60,897 nt of DNA from Myxococcaceae bacterium (GCA_044223505.1 JBGALX010000012.1:218174-279070); one strand, 5' to 3'. Positions 39,278 through 50,516 are shown, counted from the first letter of the stretch. The notes: generated from the sequence alone by a model not told the origin. Made by a program: numbers and translations.

Positions 39278-41800
39278 TCAGGCGCGCAGGTGGCGCGCGA
39301 TGCCGAGCGTCGTCTCGAGATCGACGGGCTTCACGAGGTGATGCTGGAACCCCGCGGCGGCGGTGCGAGCCTTGTCCGACGCCTGGCCGTAGCCGGTGAC
39401 GGCGACGAGCACCACGCGCTGGTCGAGCTCGCGCAGCCGCGCCGCGACCTCGTAGCCGTCCATCGCGGGCAGGCCGAGGTCGAGAAACGCGATCTCGGGC
39501 TTGAGCCCCTCGGCGAGGTCGATCGCGTGAGGCCCGTCGTTCGCGACCCTCACGTCGTGCCCATCGGCGCGCAGCCCCTCGGCGAGCAGCTCGGCGGCGT
39601 CGACGTTGTCGTCCACCACCAGCACGCGGCGCCGCTGATCATCGGTGCGCGGCGGCCTCGGCGCCGAAGGCCGCGGCTGCAGCTGCGCTCCGGTCGCGAG
39701 CGGCAGCTCGAGGGTGAACGTCGAGCCCTGCTTCAGCCCCGCGCTCTCGGCCTTCGCCGTGCCCTGGTGCATCTCGGCGAAGCGCTTCACCAGCGCGAGG
39801 CCGAGCCCGAGGCCGCCCGCGCTGCTGCGCTGCTCGGTGGGCGCCTGCGCGAACGCCTCGAACAGCCGCGGCAGCTGCTCGGGCGCGATGCCGTCGCCGT
39901 CGTCTTTCACCGTGAGCACCACGCGGCCGTCGTGCGCCGCCGCGCGGACCTCGACGTGCCCGCCGTCGTCGGTGTAGCGCGCCGCGTTCGTGAGCAGGTT
40001 CGACACGGCCTGCGTGAGCCGGTGCTCGTCGCCGAACAGCACGAGGCCGCGCTCGGGGACGTCGATGAGCAGCTGGTGCCGCTTCTGCTCGAACAGCGGC
40101 GACGCCATCTCGACGGCCTTCGTCACGATGCCGTGCAGCTCGACGCGTGTGCGGTTGAGCTCGATCTTCCCCCGCGCGATGCGCGACACGTCGAGCAGGT
40201 CGTCGACCATGCGCATCAGGTGCTTCACCTGGCGGTAGATGATCTTCCGCTCGCGCAGCAGCGCGGGCTCCTTCTTGCGGTCGAGCACCTCGAGCGCGAT
40301 GACGATCGGCGCGAGCGGGTTGCGCAGCTCGTGCCCCAGCATCGCCAGGAACTCGTCTTTCGTCTGGTTCGCAGCCACCGCCGCCTCCTGCGCGGCCCGC
40401 AGCTCGGCCATGTTCGACTCGGCCGCCTCGCGCAGCTTCCGCTCGGAGTCGAGCAGCAGCGCCCGCTCGAGCGCCTGCGCGCAGTGCCACGCGAGCACCG
40501 AGAGCTGCTCGAGCTCCTGGCCCGAGAGGCGCCGCGGCTCGCTGAAGCTCACGCCCAGCACACCGAGCGGCCCGTCGCGCCCGAGCATCGGCAGCGCGGC
40601 GAGCGCCGAATGGCGAACGTGCTCGGGCGAGACCGTCGGGTACCTCTGAAACAGCTGCTCCCGCGACTCGAGCACCACCGGCTGGCGCGTACGCCAGGCG
40701 TCGGCGGCCGGCGTCGCCGCGTCGGAGCGCATGCGCTGATAGTGCGCCACCGTCGGAGCCGAGTGACCCATCGAGCCACGCACGTCGAGCGACGTGCCGT
40801 CGGGGCTCGGCAGGAAGACGTTCGCGGCCGACGCGCCGACCGCCTCGGCCCCCTCGTGCACCACCGCGCGCAGCACCTCGTCGACGCCGCTCGCCCGGGC
40901 CAGCGCCGCGTTCAGCCGTGCGACCGCCTCGAGGCGCTGCTCGCTCGCGCGCCGCATCGCGTCTGCGACCGACACCGAGCGCGCGAGCATCACGGCCATC
41001 GCCGCGCTCACCACCGTGAGGCAGACGACGAGCAGCGCAGTGCCCGTGGGCGTGTCGACGACTCCGAGCGACTGGAGGCCGAGGCGCAGGTACCCGACCG
41101 CGACGGGCAGGCCGAGCACCATCGGAATCGCGCGGCGCAGCATGTAGCCGCCCGCGTCGCGCCGCGTGAACGCCTGACCGAGGCCGAGCTCGGGGCGCTG
41201 GAAGAGGGCGGCGACTCCGATGGCCGTCGCGAGCATCGCCGTGAGCCCCGCCATGCGAATGTACGAGGTCGGCTGGTAGAGCAGGGTCGCGTCGTAGAGG
41301 TAGCCGACGATGGCGCTGAAGCCGGTCAAGAAGACGCCGATCGAGAAGGCCTGGCTGAGCAGCACGGCGGTGCGACCACGGCGCGAGGCGAAGATCGACA
41401 GGCCCGCCAAGGTCAGCGCGAGCGCGGTGTTCGGCGCCATGCGGTTCGGGTGCAGCACCGCCTCGGCGAGCGCGCTGTGCTCGCGCTGCACGAGCTCGTC
41501 GATGCCGAGGTCGACGGCCGTGGCGTACTCGAGCAGCGTGAGCGCTCCGATGCCCGCAGCCAGCGCGGCGAGCACGTCGGCGAGCCGCGGCACGCGACGG
41601 CCGAGCCGCAGCACGAGCGCCGCCCCGATGAGCGTGAACGCCAGCGCCGTGTTCGCCTTCATGCGGTCGGCGACCACCTCTGCTCCGGTGCCGCCCGAGA
41701 GCCAGCAGCTCAGCACGAAGGTCCCGATGACGGCGCAGAAGACACCGATGACGGCCGCTGCCGTGCGTATGCCTTCGTTCGACTCTTCCGGGGGAGACAT
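39278..41800 (-). CDS. Membrane hybrid sensor histidine kinase / response regulator (multi-TM sensor domain - GAF - HisKA - HATPase_c - REC), 840 aa.
   Basis: About 8 predicted TM helices at the N-terminus, a GAF-like region, H-box HELRNPLAPIV, G-box DDGDGI...GGLGLGL, and a receiver with VLVVDDN...IAFLDLGLPAMDG. Internal ATG at 41800 (MSPPEESNEG). Confidence 0.8.
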   Translation of the reverse strand: MSPPEESNEGIRTAAAVIGVFCAVIGTFVLSCWLSGGTGAEVVADRMKANTALAFTLIGAALVLRLGRRVPRLADVLAALAAGIGALTLLEYATAVDLGIDELVQREHSALAEAVLHPNRMAPNTALALTLAGLSIFASRRGRTAVLLSQAFSIGVFLTGFSAIVGYLYDATLLYQPTSYIRMAGLTAMLATAIGVAALFQRPELGLGQAFTRRDAGGYMLRRAIPMVLGLPVAVGYLRLGLQSLGVVDTPTGTALLVVCLTVVSAAMAVMLARSVSVADAMRRASEQRLEAVARLNAALARASGVDEVLRAVVHEGAEAVGASAANVFLPSPDGTSLDVRGSMGHSAPTVAHYQRMRSDAATPAADAWRTRQPVVLESREQLFQRYPTVSPEHVRHSALAALPMLGRDGPLGVLGVSFSEPRRLSGQELEQLSVLAWHCAQALERALLLDSERKLREAAESNMAELRAAQEAAVAANQTKDEFLAMLGHELRNPLAPIVIALEVLDRKKEPALLRERKIIYRQVKHLMRMVDDLLDVSRIARGKIELNRTRVELHGIVTKAVEMASPLFEQKRHQLLIDVPERGLVLFGDEHRLTQAVSNLLTNAARYTDDGGHVEVRAAAHDGRVVLTVKDDGDGIAPEQLPRLFEAFAQAPTEQRSSAGGLGLGLALVKRFAEMHQGTAKAESAGLKQGSTFTLELPLATGAQLQPRPSAPRPPRTDDQRRRVLVVDDNVDAAELLAEGLRADGHDVRVANDGPHAIDLAEGLKPEIAFLDLGLPAMDGYEVAARLRELDQRVVLVAVTGYGQASDKARTAAAGFQHHLVKPVDLETTLGIARHLRA

Positions 41801-43256: not shown

Positions 43257-43541
43257 GGGCTCACGGGTCGCCCGGGCCGAGCTCAGGCGCCCGGCGGGGG
43301 GCGCTACCCAGGTCGCGCGCAAGCGACTCCGGCCGTGTGGCCGCCGCAGCCAACGCCGCGAGAGCACGAGCGCGCGCCGCGGCTCGGCTCTTGCGTTCGC
43401 GCCAGCCCATGCGCCTCCTTCTTCTGGCTGCTCTCACCACGCTCTGCGCGTGCGGCACCGTCTGCGACGCCGCGCGCGGGCTGCCAGCTGCAGCCAGCCG
43501 GCCGCATCTCGGCCAGCTGCGCGGCCGCCATCTTCTGACGG

Positions 43542-44324
43542 TCAACGCGCCGGCGCTGCGGCGAGGTGCGCGAAGTTCTCTCGCGCGTGCAGCCAGAACA
43601 TCGCGACGGCGGCGGCCGACGTCACGTGCCAGAGCGCGTGACCCTGCCACGGCGACTCGGGCGCGCAGAGCGGCATGCCGTCGATGGCCGAGAAGTGCCA
43701 CACGACGACCCCGAGCCCGAACACGAGCACTCCGCTGCGGAACCAGCGCTTCGGCAGACGCGGGTCGCGCCGGTGCAGCCAGACCTCGCTGCCCATCACC
43801 GAGACGACGACGACCATGACGAGGTTGCCGGTGAGCGTGGGCGCCACGAGGCCGAGCCCGGCGCCGCCCACCAGGAACGCGAGCCAGAGCGGCACGAGGC
43901 CGCGCTCGCCGAGCCGGCCCATGCGGAAGAGGTTCACCCCGGCGAGCATGCCGACGACCGCGAACATGCTCGTCGCGTCGACCGCGCCGGACCAGGCCGT
44001 GAGCGAGGCGTGGAAGAACATCGAGCCCAGGCCCTGGAACACGAGCGTCAGCGCGAAGACGAGCCCGAGCGCGCGCGGCAGCCGTGCCGCTGCGGGCCGC
44101 CCGGCGTCGCGCGCGACCGCGATCGCCGCCAGCAGCGGAGCCAGGTTCGACCACGTGTTCACCGGCTGCCGCCACAAGCCCTGCGCGGGGGCCTCGCAGT
44201 AACAGAGCACGCTGGTGCAGTCGATCGGCTCGCCCGGCCAGCCGAGCAGCGCGAAGCCCGCGAGCGTGCCAAGGCCGGCGGCGATGGCCGCGAGGGTCCA
44301 CCCGAGGGTCGCACGGCCGCTCAC
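43542..44324 (-). CDS. 7-TM membrane hydrolase of the alkaline-ceramidase-like (CREST) superfamily (260 aa).
   Basis: Seven hydrophobic helices. Conserved His positions in helices (FFHASL, WLHRRD, GHALWHV with HxxxH) fit the ceramidase/PAQR-type metal site. Confidence 0.55.
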   Translation of the reverse strand: MSGRATLGWTLAAIAAGLGTLAGFALLGWPGEPIDCTSVLCYCEAPAQGLWRQPVNTWSNLAPLLAAIAVARDAGRPAAARLPRALGLVFALTLVFQGLGSMFFHASLTAWSGAVDATSMFAVVGMLAGVNLFRMGRLGERGLVPLWLAFLVGGAGLGLVAPTLTGNLVMVVVVSVMGSEVWLHRRDPRLPKRWFRSGVLVFGLGVVVWHFSAIDGMPLCAPESPWQGHALWHVTSAAAVAMFWLHARENFAHLAAAPAR

Positions 44325-44357
44325 GCAGGCCCGATGTAGCGCGGCTCGGTGAGCCGG

Positions 44358-45599
44358 TCAGCGCCCGGCGGTCTTCTTCACCAGCTCCCGCGGCGTCGGA
44401 GGCCTCGGGTCGGGCGCGTCGAACGGCTCCTCGCGGAGCTCGAAGCGGCCGTTGTCGAACGGCAGGCCCGGCGCGGCCTCGCGCAGCACGAGCCGCTCGC
44501 GCAGCCCGCGGGCCTTCAGCGCCCGGGCGCGGTGGTGGCAGTAGGGGTTGTTGCCCGGCCGCCCGAACATCGCGTGCGCGGTGAACGTGCAGCCGCCCAT
44601 GCAGGTCTCTGCGTACGCGCACGTCCGGCAGTAGCCCCAGAGGTCTTCGACGGTGCGGCGCCGCGCGAACGCGAGCTCGGGCGCGTGCTCCCAGAGGTCT
44701 TTCAAGGGGCGCTCGCGCAGGTTGCCTCCGACGTACTCGGCGGTCTGCAGCGACGGGCAGCCCTTCACGGCGCCGTCGGACTCGATGCCCAGCACCTGTC
44801 TTCCCGCGCGGCAGCCGTGGAAGTGCTCGGTGAGGCCGGGAGGCGAGCGGAGCACGGCCTCCTCGGGGCCGAAGTAGCCCAGGTTGTTGCCGGGCACGAT
44901 GAGCAGCCGCGCCTCGGCCCACGCGCGCTTCTTCAGCGCGGCGATGCGAGGCACGAGCTCGACGAGGTCCCACGGCTGCAGCAGCATCGCGGGGCGATCT
45001 GCCGCGCGCCCGAGCGGAGCCGTCAGCTGCACCTGCCACGCCGTGACGCCGAGCTCCTTCAGCACCTCGTAGAGCGGCTCGAGGTCGGCGTGGTTGAGGC
45101 GGTTCAGGTTGATGTTCGAGCCGGTCGCGATGCCGGCGGCCTTCGCGTGCCGCAGCGCCGCCGTCGCCGCGTCGAAGCCGCCGCGCGTCGCCCGCATCAG
45201 GTCGTGCGTGGCCTGCAGCCCGTCGATGCTGACCGACACGGTGTGCAGCCCGGCCTCGGCCATCGCCGCCGCGAGCTCGGGCGTGAGGCCGCGGCCGCCG
45301 GTCGTCATCGAGGGCCGAATGCCGTGGGCCTTCAGCGCGCGAATGACGTCGAGGAAGCCCGGGTGCAGGTAGGCCTCGCCGCCGATGAGCACCACCTCGA
45401 ACGTGCCCATCGCCGCGAGCTGCTCGACGACGCCGAGCGCCTGCTCGGTCGAGAGCTCGACGTCGCGGGCCTCTTGCGCGCGCGAGCCGCAGTGCGTGCA
45501 GCGCTGATCACACGCGAGCGTGAGCTCCCAGACGACGTACAGCGGCGTCGGCGGCTCGCGCACGTCGAAGCGACGCAAGAGGTCGTCGCGGCTCGCCAT
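44358..45599 (-). CDS. Radical SAM / SPASM-domain protein (AslB/PqqE-like peptide-modifying maturase family), 413 aa.
   Basis: Internal ATG at 45599 (MASRDDLLRR...). The rSAM motif is CDQRCTHC (CxxxCxxC). A C-terminal SPASM Cys cluster follows (GCRAG...GCPSL...CRTCAYAETCMGGC...YCHH). Confidence 0.85.
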   Translation of the reverse strand: MASRDDLLRRFDVREPPTPLYVVWELTLACDQRCTHCGSRAQEARDVELSTEQALGVVEQLAAMGTFEVVLIGGEAYLHPGFLDVIRALKAHGIRPSMTTGGRGLTPELAAAMAEAGLHTVSVSIDGLQATHDLMRATRGGFDAATAALRHAKAAGIATGSNINLNRLNHADLEPLYEVLKELGVTAWQVQLTAPLGRAADRPAMLLQPWDLVELVPRIAALKKRAWAEARLLIVPGNNLGYFGPEEAVLRSPPGLTEHFHGCRAGRQVLGIESDGAVKGCPSLQTAEYVGGNLRERPLKDLWEHAPELAFARRRTVEDLWGYCRTCAYAETCMGGCTFTAHAMFGRPGNNPYCHHRARALKARGLRERLVLREAAPGLPFDNGRFELREEPFDAPDPRPPTPRELVKKTAGR

Positions 45600-45604
45600 C
45601 GTGG

Positions 45605-45937
45605 CTACTCGCCGCCGTCGGTCTTGCCGCCGTCGGTGGCGCCGGCCTTGCAGCCCACGGCGTACTCGGGGTCGTTCGCCTTGATGCCGCCGTCGGGCAG
45701 CACGTGGTTGCAGACGTCGGAGCTGCACTCGTCGATGCCGCCGTCGCCGAGCGCCGCGCTCGTGCAGGGCGCTCCGTAGATGGCGACGATGCACGCCTGA
45801 AACGCGCTCGCTCCGAGCAGCCCGAGCGGAGCGAGCCACCAGCCGCGCTTCGAGCTCGGCGACGGTGAGAACGCGCAGTTCGGGCAGCGGTGGTCGGGGT
45901 TGGGGACGAAGCTTCGGCACTCGGGGCAGCGCAGCAT
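45605..45937 (-). CDS. Small membrane-anchored protein (110 aa): N-terminal zinc-ribbon (CPEC...CPNC), one TM helix, and a Cys/Gly/Asp-rich C-terminal tail. Candidate substrate/precursor of the adjacent rSAM/SPASM enzyme.
   Basis: Internal ATG at 45937 (MLRCPECRSFVPNPDHRCPNC...). TM is WWLAPLGLLGASAFQACIVAIYGA. The tail PCTSAALGDGGIDECSSDVCNHVLPDGGIKANDPEYAVGCKAGATDGGKTDGGE has 5 Cys and DGG repeats. The gene ends 5 nt before the rSAM start. Confidence 0.55.
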   Translation of the reverse strand: MLRCPECRSFVPNPDHRCPNCAFSPSPSSKRGWWLAPLGLLGASAFQACIVAIYGAPCTSAALGDGGIDECSSDVCNHVLPDGGIKANDPEYAVGCKAGATDGGKTDGGE

Positions 45938-46197: not shown

Positions 46198-46983
46198 TCA
46201 CGGCACGACGGTCGTCGACTGAAGCTCGAGCTGCAGGCAGACGCTCACGGCGTCGCAGCCGAGGTCGCCGCCGCACGGCAGCGGCCGCCCGTCGACCATC
46301 GCGGTGTCAGCGCCGCCCATCAGGCCGACGACCGCGTCGAGCGCCTTCTCGGGCATGCCATCGGTCTCTCGCTCGATGATGCCGCAGATGTTCTTCGCCT
46401 TGCCCGCCGCGCACTGCGCGAGCACCTGCTCGACGAGCCCGCGCAGCTCGGCCTCGCTGTAGTAGCCGGTGAGCGTGAGCGGCACGCCGGTGATCGAGCC
46501 GTCGACCAGCCGGCCCTCGATGCGCGCCGCCTGCAGGCGGCTCTTCAGCATCAGCTCGTCGAGCACCGGCACCGGCAGCCGGAAGCCCGACGCCTCGGTC
46601 GAGAACCAGCCGTCGCGCTCGCCCGCGATGGCGCCGAACACGCCGTCGCCCTCGTCGTCGCCGGTCACGCGGAACTGCTCGGGGCTCGCCGCCTGCCGGC
46701 CGCTCTGAAAGTCGAGGCCCGCAAGCCCACCGCGCACGCGCGAGACCTCGGCCAAGAGCGCGATGCGCACGAAGCCCTCTTTCGGCTCGACGTACTGCTG
46801 GAGCCCGCCGGTGAAGAGCACGAGGTCCGACAGGCCGCCGCCCGCGTTGCGGCCCACCGTCGAGCAGCCGGCCTCGCGCGGGCTCGCCGGCACCGACAGC
46901 TTCGTGACGCGCAGCCACTCGGGCTCGGGCGCCGGCTGACCGCACGCCGCGGCCGCGAGCACGAGCAGCAGCGCCGCCCTCAC
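46198..46983 (-). CDS. Lipoprotein (261 aa), third gene of the DUF1592-DUF1552 operon.
   Basis: GTG at 46981-46983 overlaps the TGA of the DUF1552 gene. VRAALLLVLAAAACGQP has lipobox AAAC. The upstream part of track ORF 46198..48120 is an artefact. Confidence 0.6.
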   Translation of the reverse strand: MRAALLLVLAAAACGQPAPEPEWLRVTKLSVPASPREAGCSTVGRNAGGGLSDLVLFTGGLQQYVEPKEGFVRIALLAEVSRVRGGLAGLDFQSGRQAASPEQFRVTGDDEGDGVFGAIAGERDGWFSTEASGFRLPVPVLDELMLKSRLQAARIEGRLVDGSITGVPLTLTGYYSEAELRGLVEQVLAQCAAGKAKNICGIIERETDGMPEKALDAVVGLMGGADTAMVDGRPLPCGGDLGCDAVSVCLQLELQSTTVVP

Positions 46984-48260
46984 GACCAGACTCCCGGCAG
47001 CACGCGCGTCGAGTCGCCGAACCGGTCGACCCCGGCGCCCATCGCCCCCATGAACGCGAGGTAGAGGTTCGCGAGCGGCTCGGCCTGCGCGAGCCGCACG
47101 TGCTGGCCTGCGACGCTGCCGCCGCGGCCGGCGACGAGCACCGGCAGGTTCGTGTGCGCGTGCGAGTTGCCGTCTTCGACGTCGCTCGAGAAGTACGCGA
47201 CGGTGTGGTCGAGCAGCGTGCCGTTGCCCTCGGGCACGGCCTTCAGCGCCTCGAGGAGGTAGCCGAACTGGGCGACCTCCCACGTGGCGATGACGTCGAG
47301 CTTCTCGAGCTTCTCGGGGTCGTTCTGGTGGTGCGACAGCTCGTGGTGGGCGCCGCGAGCTCCGAGGAAGTCGTAGCTGCGGTTCGAGATGCCGTTCGCG
47401 AGCATGAAGCTCACCACGCGCGTGAGGTCGCAGCGCAGCGCCGTCACGATGAGGTCGATCATCTGCTTCGACTTCACGGGAATGTCGCCCTCGACTGGAG
47501 CCGTTGCGCTGCACGTGCCCGCCTCGACGCCGAGCCGCACCTCGAGCTCGCGCACGCCCGTCAGGTACTCGTCGAGCTTCGCGCGGTCTCTCGTCGACAG
47601 CCGCGACGACAGCGAGGTCGCCTCGCCGCGCACGTAGTCGAGCACGCTCGCGCGCGTGACGCGGCGGCGCTGCAGCTGCTGCTGGCTCGCCGACGCGTCT
47701 GCTCCGGCGAAGAGGCGCTCGAAGACGACGCGCGGCTCGACGAGCTTCGGCATCGGGCTCTTCGGGCCGGCCCACGAGATGTTCCGCGTGTACGCGCACG
47801 AGTAGCCGTTGTCGCAGCTGCCCTGCGACTCGCCGCCCTCGAGGCCGAGCTGCAGCGAGCGGAAGCGCGTCGCCGGGTTCAGCCGCTGCACCATCAGCTG
47901 ATCCACCGAGGTGCCGTTGGTGATGTCGGCCGCCTCGGACTTCACGACCGCCTCGCACGTGAGAAACGAGCCCGTGCCGCGCGCGTGATCGCCCGGCAGC
48001 GGGGAAGCGGCCGGCGCGTTCGACAGGCCCGTGATGACCGTCACGTGCGGCTTCACCGGAGCGAGCGGCAGCAAGAGTCGCTTGGGCTGCCACTGAGGGC
48101 CCTCGGCGTCGGGCGTCCACCCGCTCATGTTGATGCCGTTCGGCGCGAAGACCGCGACGAAGCGCATCGGCGGCGCGGTCTGCGCCAGCGACTCGAACGC
48201 CGGCAGCGCGACGAGGGCGCCGGCGCCTCCGAGAAAGGCCCTGCGGCCGAGGCGAATCAC
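46980..48260 (-). CDS. DUF1552-family protein with a Tat-type signal (426 aa).
   Basis: VIRLGRRAFLGGAGALVALPAFESLAQ (twin-arginine RRAFL). The body matches the DUF1552 pattern (...FMLANGISNRSYDFLG...HHELSHH...). GTG at 48258-48260 overlaps the TGA of the upstream DUF1592 gene. Confidence 0.78.
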   Translation of the reverse strand: MIRLGRRAFLGGAGALVALPAFESLAQTAPPMRFVAVFAPNGINMSGWTPDAEGPQWQPKRLLLPLAPVKPHVTVITGLSNAPAASPLPGDHARGTGSFLTCEAVVKSEAADITNGTSVDQLMVQRLNPATRFRSLQLGLEGGESQGSCDNGYSCAYTRNISWAGPKSPMPKLVEPRVVFERLFAGADASASQQQLQRRRVTRASVLDYVRGEATSLSSRLSTRDRAKLDEYLTGVRELEVRLGVEAGTCSATAPVEGDIPVKSKQMIDLIVTALRCDLTRVVSFMLANGISNRSYDFLGARGAHHELSHHQNDPEKLEKLDVIATWEVAQFGYLLEALKAVPEGNGTLLDHTVAYFSSDVEDGNSHAHTNLPVLVAGRGGSVAGQHVRLAQAEPLANLYLAFMGAMGAGVDRFGDSTRVLPGVWS

Positions 48261-50155
48261 GGGGCGGCTCCTCTCGCGCGGAAGACCGGCGCGTGCACGA
48301 GGGCGTCGACGAGGCCCGGCAGCGTGTGCGCTTCGGCGAGCGACTCGAGCACCGACTGCTCTTCGCCGCCCGGCGGCCGGCCCAGCGCGTAGGTGAAGAG
48401 GTGCTGCGCGATGCACAGCTCGAGGTTCGGGTCGCTCGCGACGAGCTGCGAGAGCTGCGCCGGCCCGTCGAACGAGCGCCCGTCGGGCAGCTTGCCGGTC
48501 GCGTCGATGGCGTAGCCGAGGTCGCGCTCGCGCGCCGCGCCGATGCCGTCGAAGCCCTCGAGCCCGAAGCCGATGGGGTCCATCTGCTTGTGGCACGACG
48601 CGCAGACCGGCTTGCTCACGTGCGCCTCGAGCCGCTGCCGCACGCTGCCCATCACCTGGGTCGCCGTCGGCAGCCCCTCGACGCCCGGAGGAGGAGGCGG
48701 CGGCGACTGACACAGCAGCTGGCTCAGCACCCACTTGCCGCGCTGCACCGGCGACGTGCGCGTCGGGTAGGAGGTGAACGTGAGGAAGGCGCCCTGCGTG
48801 AGCAGCCCGCGCCGCTGAGAGCCCTCGTCGAGCGTCACGCGCTGAAAGTCGTCGCCGGGCGCAGGCAGCCCGTAGTGCGCGGCGAGCGGAGCGTTCACGA
48901 ACGTGAAGTCGGCGGTGAGCAGCTCGCGCGTGGGGCGCTCGCCCGCGACGAACGCGGCGAAGAAGCGCTGCGACTGCTCGCGCATCGCGTCGCGTAAGCC
49001 TGGGCTCCACGCGGGGAACGCGTCGGGGTCGGTCTCGTGGGCCGCGAGCGCGCGCGTCGCGAGCCACTGGCCGCCGAAGTCTTCGATGAACGCCTGCGCC
49101 TTCGGGCTCTCGAGCATGCGCTTGACCTCGGCCGACAGCACCGCGGCGTCGTGCAGCCGCCCCTCGTCGGCGCGAGCCCGCAGCGGCTCGTCGGGCATGC
49201 TCGACCACAAGAGATACGAGAGCCGCGTCGCGAGCTCGTGGTCGGTCAGCCAGCGCGGGCGGCCCTCGCCGTCGGCCTCGACGCGGAAGAGGAAGTGTGG
49301 AGAGACGAGCGCGGCCTCGAGCGCCACAGCGACCGCCGCGTCGAACGGAGCGCCCGCCTCGAGCTCGGGCTCGACGAGCGCCAGCAGCGCGTCGACCTCG
49401 GCGCGCGACACCGGGCGGCGAAACGCCCGCGCCGCGAAGCCCTCGACGATGTGCCGCGCGTCCGCCGAAGCGAAGACCTGTGCGTACGCCTCGGACGGCG
49501 CCTCGAGCGGGCCCTCGAGCCGCAGCCAGTCGACGCGCGCGGCCTTCAGCGGCCCGGCCATCGGCGCGCCCGTCAGCTCGAGCGTGAGCGCGGCGGCGCC
49601 TGCTTGCGGGGCGTCGACCTCGACCGAGTAGACCTTGGGGAAGGTGTCGGCGAGCTCGAGCGTCTCGGTCGCAGCGCCGAGCGAGAGGCGCGCGGGCAGC
49701 GGCCCGCTCTCGGCGGCGGCGCGCACCGAGAGCCGGTAGCGCCCGGCGGCGGGCAGGCTCAGCTCGGCGCGGAGCTGGCCGCTCCACAGGCGCCACCAGG
49801 TGTCGCGCCAGCGGTGGCCCTCTTGCGGCTGCAGGTCTTCGGCCTGGAAGACGGCGAAGGTGCGGCTGCCGACGAGCTCGTCGACGAGCGTCTCGGCGGC
49901 CTGCGCGTAGAGCTCGGCCTGCAGCGGCGAGAGGCTGAGCGCGTCGGGGTTGTTGTCGAAGCCGTACGCGTGGTCGTCGACGGGAAAGTCGCGTGACGGG
50001 TCGAGCGTGGTGCCGAGCAGGTCTTGCACGGTGCGGCGGTACTCGGTGCGATTGAGCCGGCGCAGCGTGATGAGGCCCGGGTCGTAGGGCACGGCCGGCT
50101 CGGCGCAGGCGCTGATCAACGCCACCACAGAAAGGGCTGACCAGGCCGCTCGCAC
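48257..50155 (-). CDS. DUF1592/DUF1595/DUF1587/DUF1588/DUF1585-family lipoprotein (partner of DUF1552), about 632 aa, containing a CxxCH motif.
   Basis: Start placed at GTG 50155 (VRAAWSALSVVALISACAEP, lipobox ISAC), downstream of an intrinsic terminator. Contains the CASCHKQMDPIGFGLEGFDGIG motif characteristic of this family. Confidence 0.75.
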   Translation of the reverse strand: MRAAWSALSVVALISACAEPAVPYDPGLITLRRLNRTEYRRTVQDLLGTTLDPSRDFPVDDHAYGFDNNPDALSLSPLQAELYAQAAETLVDELVGSRTFAVFQAEDLQPQEGHRWRDTWWRLWSGQLRAELSLPAAGRYRLSVRAAAESGPLPARLSLGAATETLELADTFPKVYSVEVDAPQAGAAALTLELTGAPMAGPLKAARVDWLRLEGPLEAPSEAYAQVFASADARHIVEGFAARAFRRPVSRAEVDALLALVEPELEAGAPFDAAVAVALEAALVSPHFLFRVEADGEGRPRWLTDHELATRLSYLLWSSMPDEPLRARADEGRLHDAAVLSAEVKRMLESPKAQAFIEDFGGQWLATRALAAHETDPDAFPAWSPGLRDAMREQSQRFFAAFVAGERPTRELLTADFTFVNAPLAAHYGLPAPGDDFQRVTLDEGSQRRGLLTQGAFLTFTSYPTRTSPVQRGKWVLSQLLCQSPPPPPPGVEGLPTATQVMGSVRQRLEAHVSKPVCASCHKQMDPIGFGLEGFDGIGAARERDLGYAIDATGKLPDGRSFDGPAQLSQLVASDPNLELCIAQHLFTYALGRPPGGEEQSVLESLAEAHTLPGLVDALVHAPVFRARGAAP

Positions 50156-50234
50156 GGCGCGAGCAGTACCACAGGGTGACGAGCACCGTTCGCGCCGGGT
50201 TGGCGTGAATTGTCTGCCGTCAGTCGCCGCCCGC

Positions 50235-50286
50235 AAAAAGAAAAACCCCGGGTGTGCCGCTCCAAAGGGGCGGCCCGGCCCGGGGG
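50235..50286 (-). terminator. Rho-independent terminator on the minus strand: two-level GC hairpin followed by TTTTTCTTTTT.
   Basis: The minus strand reads CCCCGGG-[GCCGC..GCGGC inner stem]-CCCGGGG TTTTTCTTTTT. On the plus strand this appears as aaaaagaaaaa followed by the stem. Confidence 0.6.
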
Positions 50287-50516
50287 CGCTACTCACTGAA
50301 GAGGAGGCAAGGGTGGACGTTGCTGCCGACTGACGCGGCGTGCGGTGCGGGTCCGTTCAAACACCCGCGCTCCGGGGTCTCCCTTCCTTCTGCCTTCGCT
50401 CCAGCGAGGGCGAACAGGTGCAGCGCATGTGCCGCGGCGTAACCCAGCGAACCCCCGCGCTCGGCGCGGCGCGTGCGCGCAAGCGTTTCGTTTTCGGGGC
50501 GCTCGGGGCGCAACAC

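Follow-up and report, generated by a model that had tools for sequence, protein, structure and literature searches.

Tyramine splicing is carried out by PlpX, a radical S-adenosylmethionine (SAM) enzyme with a SPASM domain, which belongs to a formerly uncharacterised subclass (IPR026482) occurring with precursors that have Nif11 or NHLP leaders. PlpX excises tyramine at an XYG site, and the products are called spliceotides. The residue X can vary; the characterised splice sites include MYG and LYG, and engineered tags such as PIRPLYGLPI. The spliceotides tested so far are protease inhibitors. A later splicease survey gives 939 predicted systems in 189 genera and 27 validated enzyme-substrate pairs; in this survey, the types are set by enzyme phylogeny and precursor identity, and the non-cyanobacterial types are all without a Y protein. 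Two kinds of described system are relevant here: the type I spliceotides (PlpX/PlpY/PlpA, and PcpXYA of Pleurocapsa), and the type II binary (Y-less) spliceotides of Rheinheimera (RhaX/RhaA, RasX/RasA, and RcsX/RcsA), which have two disulfide-bonded Cys around the single LYG or MYG site of the core. In binary spliceases, the leader itself has been proposed to supply the activating helix.

In the present study, we analyzed a stretch of 60,897 nt from a Myxococcaceae bacterium (GCA_044223505.1 JBGALX010000012.1:218174-279070; hereafter the window), in which positions 43542-45937 encode a small zinc-ribbon protein, a radical SAM/SPASM enzyme, and a ceramidase-like membrane protein. An initial annotation of this DNA had grouped the three genes as one candidate peptide-modification unit of an undescribed class of ribosomally made, post-translationally modified peptides (RiPPs). 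According to our results, it is highly probable that the first two genes form a two-gene module of enzyme and substrate whose target is a block around a conserved Tyr-Gly (YG), and we argue below that the reaction is probably the splicing of tyramine.

The pair and its conserved Tyr-Gly motif

When one genome per species was scanned, a relative of the radical SAM enzyme was found in 446 genomes, and the best 80 loci were taken. These loci are nearly all from Myxococcota (Myxococcaceae, Archangiaceae, Polyangia, Sorangium, Nannocystis, and Sandaracinaceae), and the identity of the enzymes across the phylum is 65-78%. A jackhmmer search of the stop-to-stop open reading frames (ORFs) of the 80 loci and three others located a homolog of the small protein immediately upstream of the enzyme gene in 77 of 83 loci; it is divergent in some of these, and in the others it has the direction of the enzyme gene and stops only a few bases before the enzyme start. 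Three loci (L070, L084, and L085) add further pairs. The small protein and the enzyme are adjacent in approximately 80 of 84 informative loci. All-against-all clustering of the flanking ORFs found no other family common to more than a handful of loci. Furthermore, the neighbor-joining tree of the enzymes separates those paired with the precursor types [I/L/V]YG.PC, TLSACYG, and TLMACYG; the window enzyme lies next to the [I/L/V]YG.PC group, and within the enzymes paired with TLMACYG there is a further division according to gene orientation. In several genomes, two pairs that differ in type are present, for example in JASGKS (L020 and L032). Because of the adjacency, the tracking of motif types by the enzyme tree, and the long branch of the enzyme of a YG-less paralog, the small protein is very probably a dedicated substrate of the adjacent radical SAM/SPASM enzyme. 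The proposal of the initial annotation that the small protein is the substrate is thus strengthened, since the two diversify together. The features of the pair are as follows.

45605-45937, minus strand: small candidate precursor (substrate) protein, 110 aa (ORF and translation; GAGGA resembling a ribosome-binding site upstream)
45875-45928, minus strand: zinc-ribbon codons (C4-P-E-C7 ... C18-P-N-C21), Cys 100% conserved in a 77-sequence alignment
45779-45841, minus strand: hydrophobic segment from hydropathy, residues ~33-53 (WWLAPLGLLGASAFQACIVAI), with lipobox-like SAFQA-C49
45767-45781, minus strand: predicted splice site I53-Y54-G55-A56-P57 (X-Y-G-x-P), from the conservation of YG
45608-45766, minus strand: acidic Gly/Asp-rich tail with C58, C71, C76, C96, and DGG repeats, predicted to be extracytoplasmic
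44358-45599, minus strand: radical SAM/SPASM enzyme of 413 aa, probably of the PlpX-like splicease clade (Pfam Radical_SAM and SPASM; TIGR04103/TIGR03913, both below cut-off)
45489-45512, minus strand: radical SAM cluster motif C30-x3-C34-x2-C37, invariant in an alignment of 20 homologs
44538-44813, minus strand: SPASM region C263, C281, C324-x2-C327-x5-C333-x3-C337, C354, all seven Cys invariant in the 20 homologs

The small protein begins with MLRCPECRSFVPNPDHRCPNC... and has no Pfam or NCBIfam match, while its relatives P0002 and P0003 have a precomputed match to PF10571. The zinc ribbon noted in the initial annotation was recovered, but its spacing is CPEC-x10-CPNC and not CPEC-x12-CPNC. 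The single membrane helix and the Cys/Gly/Asp tail also agree with our analysis, in which one hydrophobic segment (~33-53) is followed by a 57-aa tail with four Cys. A word-index search with the small protein found only four relatives because the family is divergent, and the family is visible only through the radical SAM loci. In the 82 sequences obtained from these loci, a ribbon of four invariant Cys (context G-F-V-P ... C-P-x-C) is followed by a basic linker, a hydrophobic segment, and a conserved block of ~11 residues around YG. Most members have T-L-[S/M]-A-C-Y-G-x-P-(P)-C as this block, and the subgroup of the window has C-x(3-7)-[I/L/V]-Y-G-[A/V/I]-P-C-[T/V]-[S/T]. YG is at the same position in 80 of the 82 homologs, and in the 77-sequence alignment only the ribbon Cys are more conserved than Y and G. 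Among the 80 homologs with YG, the preceding residue X is C in 63, V in six, L in five, I in four, and A in two, and Pro is found at YG+2 in 67. The window protein has the Xaa-Tyr-Gly expected of a spliceotide precursor (I53-Y54-G55). The motif I53-Y54-G55-A56-P57, which is what is actually conserved near the tail, had been overlooked in the initial annotation.

Departures from the usual arrangement were also observed. Tandem precursor genes precede one radical SAM gene in L008 (677-1694), L032 (4373-4995), L075 (3-1320), L078 (3873-4983), and L004 (4295-4998). In L008, one tandem precursor is of the TLSACYG type and the other of the TISALYG type, and it would seem that one enzyme can serve two substrates. 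YG is absent in L041 (4528-5001; SACSGPIC) and in L057 (1745-2233; hydrophobic segment deleted). L041 is an additional copy within its genome, and the corresponding enzyme is among the longest terminal branches of the tree; the loss of YG in these two loci may reflect decay or a change of function.

The enzyme family and the nature of the modification

The CxxxCxxC motif and the SPASM Cys cluster reported in the initial annotation are confirmed by the invariant Cys and by Pfam matches to Radical_SAM (E 3.9e-23) and SPASM (E 1.1e-7, residues 263-327). Only 29 residues precede the CxxxCxxC motif, and thus the enzyme is without an N-terminal RRE domain. The top NCBIfam match is TIGR04103, "nif11-class peptide radical SAM maturase 3" (441.9 bits, E 1.7e-132, positions 6-387 of 412), and the second is TIGR03913 (414.1 bits, E 5.8e-124). 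The next families (TIGR04133, AhbD, NirJ, MftC, PqqE, and the sactisynthases) reach at most 150 bits, and the sequence matches in the PDB are generic only (SkfB with 68 bits, PqqE, and BlsE). An exhaustive search of cluster representatives with the enzyme gave 611 clusters at E <= 1e-30. Ten top representatives were scanned, and only TIGR04103 and TIGR03913 matched at E <= 1e-60; furthermore, P0133, which is 45% identical to the window enzyme, passes the TIGR03913 cut-off. Judging from these matches, both families lie within one broad clade, to which the window enzyme also belongs.

Two control loci link this clade to splice-type sites. A Nostoc edaphicum protein that bears the NCBI name "nif11-class peptide radical SAM maturase 3" has 49% identity to the window enzyme across 384 aa, a stretch that takes in the family-specific C-terminal extension, GLPFDNGxFEL. 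Three sites (QPLYGVIY, QPMYGIVI, and QPMYGVVIPE) are present in the Nif11-type precursor encoded at this Nostoc locus, which also has a 54-aa PlpY-like ORF. In a second related clade (locus L087), a 61-aa peptide ending in CPRPLYGVPTGVPM adjoins an ATP-binding cassette (ABC) exporter with a C39 peptidase. Three separate clades of the enzyme group each adjoin X-Y-G-x-(P) sites, and I53-Y54-G55-A56-P57 of the window conforms to this pattern. Since the enzyme probably falls in the splicease clade and the small protein has the XYGxP motif, tyramine excision can be inferred by homology, and the pair is probably a binary spliceotide-type system with tyramine splicing chemistry.

L087 (3734-5341, on an 11-Mb metagenome-assembled contig) is itself a separate splicease-like system, with a radical SAM enzyme closer to the cyanobacterial type. 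Its exporter is divergent and is accompanied by a membrane-fusion protein, a nearby protein has a faint match to "tSAM_targ_Cxxx_rpt", and the relatives of its radical SAM enzyme are labelled Myxococcota and Acidobacteriota.

With the type I spliceotides, the window pair shares what is probably the same radical SAM/SPASM clade, the C-terminal extension, the lack of an N-terminal RRE, and an adjacent precursor in which a hydrophobic residue comes after X-Y-G, in many cases with Pro. However, the window pair has neither a PlpY-like gene nor a Nif11/NHLP leader, and no ORF is present between or after the small gene and the radical SAM gene. It also differs in that each protein has a single predicted splice site where type I has several, in the absence of an epimerase, protease, or transporter from the locus, in a precursor composed of a zinc ribbon and a signal-anchor with a putative lipobox, and in an enzyme score below the TIGR04103 cut-off. 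The lack of a PlpY-like ORF and of a Nif11/NHLP leader excludes type I but not the spliceotide family, since the non-cyanobacterial types have no Y protein. The Rheinheimera binary systems, to which we liken the pair by description, also consist of an enzyme and a precursor only. Their precursors, however, are short RiPPs that are secreted, with leaders of helical form and processing of the Gly-Gly or PCAT type, whereas the "leader" of the window protein is a zinc ribbon with a hydrophobic segment, and its product is predicted to be membrane-attached. As for the TIGR03913 systems, the family is the second-best match of the window enzyme and includes the 45% identical P0133, but the C-terminal part of its 477-position profile is missing from the window enzyme, and the neighbors in Chromobacterium are DUF1842/DUF1843 proteins and not zinc-ribbon proteins. 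The claim of an undescribed RiPP class therefore needs to be divided: the enzyme probably falls in the tyramine splicease clade, whereas the precursor with a zinc ribbon and a signal-anchor is unlike the leaders described in the literature examined. We found nothing relevant in the literature on spliceotides with zinc-ribbon or lipoprotein precursors, or on those of Sorangium or Stigmatella; this type may be among the 939 predicted systems.

Several points weigh against tyramine splicing in the window pair. The enzyme is below the equivalog cut-offs of both families (442 against 725 for TIGR04103, and 414 against 592 for TIGR03913), which makes it a sister clade with a possibly different reaction, and splicing is deduced from homology at ~45-50% identity. 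We take IPR026482 to be equal to TIGR04103, a correspondence to which the control loci lend indirect support only. Cys as X in XYG is unreported in the literature examined, yet X is Cys in most members of the family. The predicted splice site is at the exported end of the signal-anchor, and the modification would have to precede insertion into the membrane. Four radical SAM loci (L011, L017, L058, and L073) have no adjacent precursor. Furthermore, the lipoboxes of some members of the window subgroup are poor, with N, Y, or F at -1, which makes lipoprotein processing uncertain.

Some of these points would also fit a splicease-like enzyme that performs a different Tyr-directed reaction on the C/X-Y-G-x-P-C block, such as a Cys-Tyr or other Tyr-centred crosslink, or epimerisation. 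The scores below both cut-offs indicate a distinct clade, most members of the family have Cys on one or both sides of the motif (AC-YG-xP(P)C), and SPASM enzymes at such divergence can change chemistry. However, the X-Y-G-x-(P) sites adjoining three clades match the published defining motif of splicing, and the flanking Cys are not universal, as in the homologs with ACYGGGPYD, ACYGAAYYE, and ACYGGPPPP. We therefore regard a different Tyr chemistry as rather improbable.

The initial annotation had instead placed the modification on the Cys-rich tail, which would make the enzyme a sacti- or ranthipeptide-type maturase that forms thioethers, with the seven-transmembrane (7TM) hydrolase as a partner in processing or lipid remodelling. 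The tight spacing of the three genes and the four Cys and many Asp of the tail are in keeping with that proposal, and PapB-type enzymes crosslink Cys to Asp. The behavior of the tail in the family is otherwise. In the window protein, the tail is 57 aa from Y54 (G12, A7, D7, and C4 in composition); among the homologs, its length ranges from 26 to 302 residues and the D-G-G/D-A-G repeats number from zero to eight. In the 77-sequence alignment, the positions of the tail Cys and DGG show weak conservation next to that of YG. All of 78 homologs have an even number of Cys after YG (0, 2, 4, 6, 14, or 26), and three homologs have none. Such a strictly even count is expected of a disulfide-bonded exported domain and not of thioether donors, and it points to disulfides as the state of the tail Cys. 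Moreover, the matches of the enzyme to sactisynthases are weak (StsB with 89 bits and SkfB with 63 bits in NCBIfam, in addition to the 68 bits of SkfB in the PDB), the RRE is absent, and the hydrolase accompanies the enzyme in none of 85 radical SAM loci, with a reverse test giving 0 of 46. SkfB, CteB, PapB, and anSME do resemble the window pair in their radical SAM and SPASM auxiliary clusters and in having the substrate encoded next door, but this similarity is generic, and the window pair has no RRE, no conserved tail Cys, and no sulfatase nearby. Thioether formation on the tail is thus very unlikely, and the XYGxP motif takes the place of the tail Cys as the predicted target. An assignment to anSME was rejected, as no anSME model is among the 25 best NCBIfam matches of the enzyme and the conserved neighbor is the small protein, not a sulfatase.

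In Polyangia (L062, L076, L080, L082, which is Sorangium So ce56, L053, L065, L074, and L083), the precursor tails have expanded Cys/Asp-rich repeats, D-x-D-G-D-G... and D-C-D/N-D..-I-H-P..-D-G-I/V-D-Q-N-C-D-G, the longest tail being 302 aa with 26 Cys. These repeats presumably resemble the metal-binding motifs of the MopE type.

Finally, it is extremely improbable that the enzyme is a housekeeping cofactor enzyme (AhbD/NirJ-like, for heme or tetrapyrrole) with the small gene as an unrelated conserved neighbor. In favor of such a role, the 65-78% identity across Myxococcota is unusual conservation, the pair in Cystobacter fuscus lies beside nitrite reductase and siroheme genes, and some clade members are named "heme biosynthesis protein" in databases, but the AhbD/NirJ models score 115-144 bits against 442 for TIGR04103, the flanking genes vary by locus with the small protein alone constant, and the enzyme tree follows the precursor motif. 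In C. fuscus (L003; CP022098, 1-5372), the neighbors are nitrite reductase, Rieske, HEM4, and TP_methylase (siroheme) genes; together with the "heme biosynthesis protein" labels, such neighbors could mislead annotation.

The ceramidase-like gene and other neighbors

The minus strand carries the three genes as consecutive co-directional ORFs with intergenic gaps of 5 and 33 nt, as the initial annotation had stated. The GC content at the third codon position is 0.95 for each of the three ORFs in a genome of 71% GC, and thus they look like real genes. The GC content of the window is 69-74% throughout, and a scan for promoters and terminators was uninformative in this GC-rich DNA. The third gene is the following.

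43542-44324, minus strand: ceramidase/CREST-type multi-pass membrane hydrolase, 260 aa, GTG start (Pfam PF05875)

The description of this protein as 7TM and ceramidase-like is supported by a PF05875 score of 42.3 bits against a cut-off of 32.5 (E 7.6e-11), by ~6-7 hydrophobic segments, and by His residues of the conserved type. As in the alkaline ceramidase/CREST 7TM hydrolases, there is a His/HxxxH arrangement (H105, H229, and H233, in FFHAS and HALWH), which we assume to resemble the three-His zinc site of ACER3. It differs from them in having no NCBIfam match and no genomic link to the pair elsewhere. No ceramidase homolog was found in the 85 radical SAM loci. In the closest relative, whose radical SAM enzyme is 78% identical, a Ser/Thr kinase gene and not a ceramidase-like gene is downstream of the enzyme gene. 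In the reverse test, none of 46 metagenomic loci with a ceramidase homolog had the radical SAM enzyme or the small protein; four of the 46 encode proteins 52-55% identical to the third protein, and none of the 46 loci has any other neighbor in common with the window. The ceramidase-like gene is therefore an independent neighbor in this genome and is outside the conserved module, although it may be co-transcribed with the pair here. The three-gene unit of the initial annotation, which was to be abandoned if the genes were not syntenic in related genomes, does not survive these counts, and neither does the role of the hydrolase as a partner.

An ORF on the plus strand, at 43409-43819, starts with MRLLLLAALTTLCACGTVCDAARG..., which has the look of a lipobox-bearing signal peptide; the ORF converges on the ceramidase-like gene and extends antisense into it. 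It might be spurious, as a high-GC ORF, or it might be a genuine short gene with a frame problem. Upstream of the small gene, at 46980-50296 (minus strand), the gene for a DUF1552 (HXXSHH) protein (E 1e-91) adjoins that for a DUF1592/DUF1588/DUF1587/DUF1595/DUF1585 protein; this duo is a gene pair of the Planctomycete/Myxococcota type. A 253-aa ORF (46198-46959, minus strand) with a lipoprotein-like N-terminal signal (…LLLVLAAAAC-GQP…) and no Pfam match separates the DUF1552 gene from the small precursor gene. On the other side, positions 39278-41800 (minus strand) encode a large hybrid sensor kinase that combines membrane segments with GAF, HisKA, HATPase_c, and receiver domains.

Possible mechanism and role of the pair

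The hydropathy of the small protein peaks at 1.88 (residues 39-53), and the hydrophobic segment is preceded by basic K/R and followed by the D/E of the acidic tail. The basic residues before the segment, the acidic tail, and the lipobox-like Cys point to an N-in/C-out signal-anchor with the ribbon as an N-terminal extension, and this signal-anchor may be a lipoprotein signal peptide. The lipobox is [LVI][ASTVI][GAS]C, and its Cys becomes residue +1 on cleavage by signal peptidase II. A core pattern for it in the style of PROSITE fits the Cys upstream of YG in 71 of 78 family members, including the window protein. With lipoprotein precursors (Lgt/LspA/Lnt), the family shares a basic n-region, a hydrophobic h-region, a putative lipobox of the L-[S/M]-A-C type, and an even number of downstream Cys that would be available for disulfides. 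However, a zinc ribbon of ~25-30 aa precedes the signal, so that the Cys is at position 47-83, far from the N-terminus, in contrast to 15-35 in lipoproteins, and the -1 residue is non-canonical in some members of the window subgroup.

The following mechanism may be proposed for the pair. The four-Cys zinc ribbon of the precursor would fold in the cytoplasm, and the ribbon and the hydrophobic helix would serve as the leader or recognition element, one or both of them possibly taking the role of the leader helix of binary spliceases. The enzyme would cleave SAM reductively and, by radical chemistry, excise the equivalent of tyramine (C8H9NO, -135.07 Da) from Tyr54 of I53-Y54-G55; in most relatives, the affected residue would, by homology, be the lipobox-like Cys of L-[S/M]-A-C-Y-G. 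Because radical SAM enzymes with Fe-S clusters are cytoplasmic, the modification would precede the N-in/C-out insertion of the hydrophobic segment, after which, as the predicted topology implies, the acidic tail would be exported. The four tail Cys would then form two disulfides, as the even Cys count and the charge distribution suggest. More speculatively, signal peptidase II might remove the ribbon and the signal segment and leave a lipid-anchored peptide, electrophilic by its ketoamide, at the membrane surface. Ketoamides are inhibitor warheads for Ser/Cys proteases, and it is thus plausible that such a peptide would act on an envelope Ser/Cys protease in a membrane-proximal inhibitory or regulatory role, although this step too is speculative.

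The phylum-wide conservation suggests a physiological function more than a variable antibiotic. We tentatively raise the possibility, which we hold to be doubtful at present, that the pair makes a housekeeping-like spliceotide found throughout Myxococcota, which would be a protein of the membrane or a lipoprotein and not an antibiotic that is secreted: a lipid-anchored disulfide mini-domain displaying at the membrane surface, in its first residues, an electrophilic alpha-keto-beta-amino acid, for which the ribbon and the signal would be the RiPP leader. In this lipid-anchored form, the splice site would coincide with the lipobox Cys or lie a few residues after it.

Tyramine splicing is one of few routes to beta-amino acids and ketoamide warheads in ribosomal products. 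A pair without accessory genes, whose substrate is predicted to be at the membrane, may offer a route to the in vivo purpose of splicing, and it is carried by culturable myxobacterial genera (Corallococcus, Archangium, and Sorangium). The known precursor architectures would be widened by a zinc-ribbon leader and possibly a lipoprotein core. If the lipid-anchored spliceotide is real, it could be a covalent-reversible inhibitor or a sensor of an envelope Ser/Cys protease. No spliceotide before it would have had a defined location in the cell and a native role, and it would represent a new way of removing a RiPP leader.

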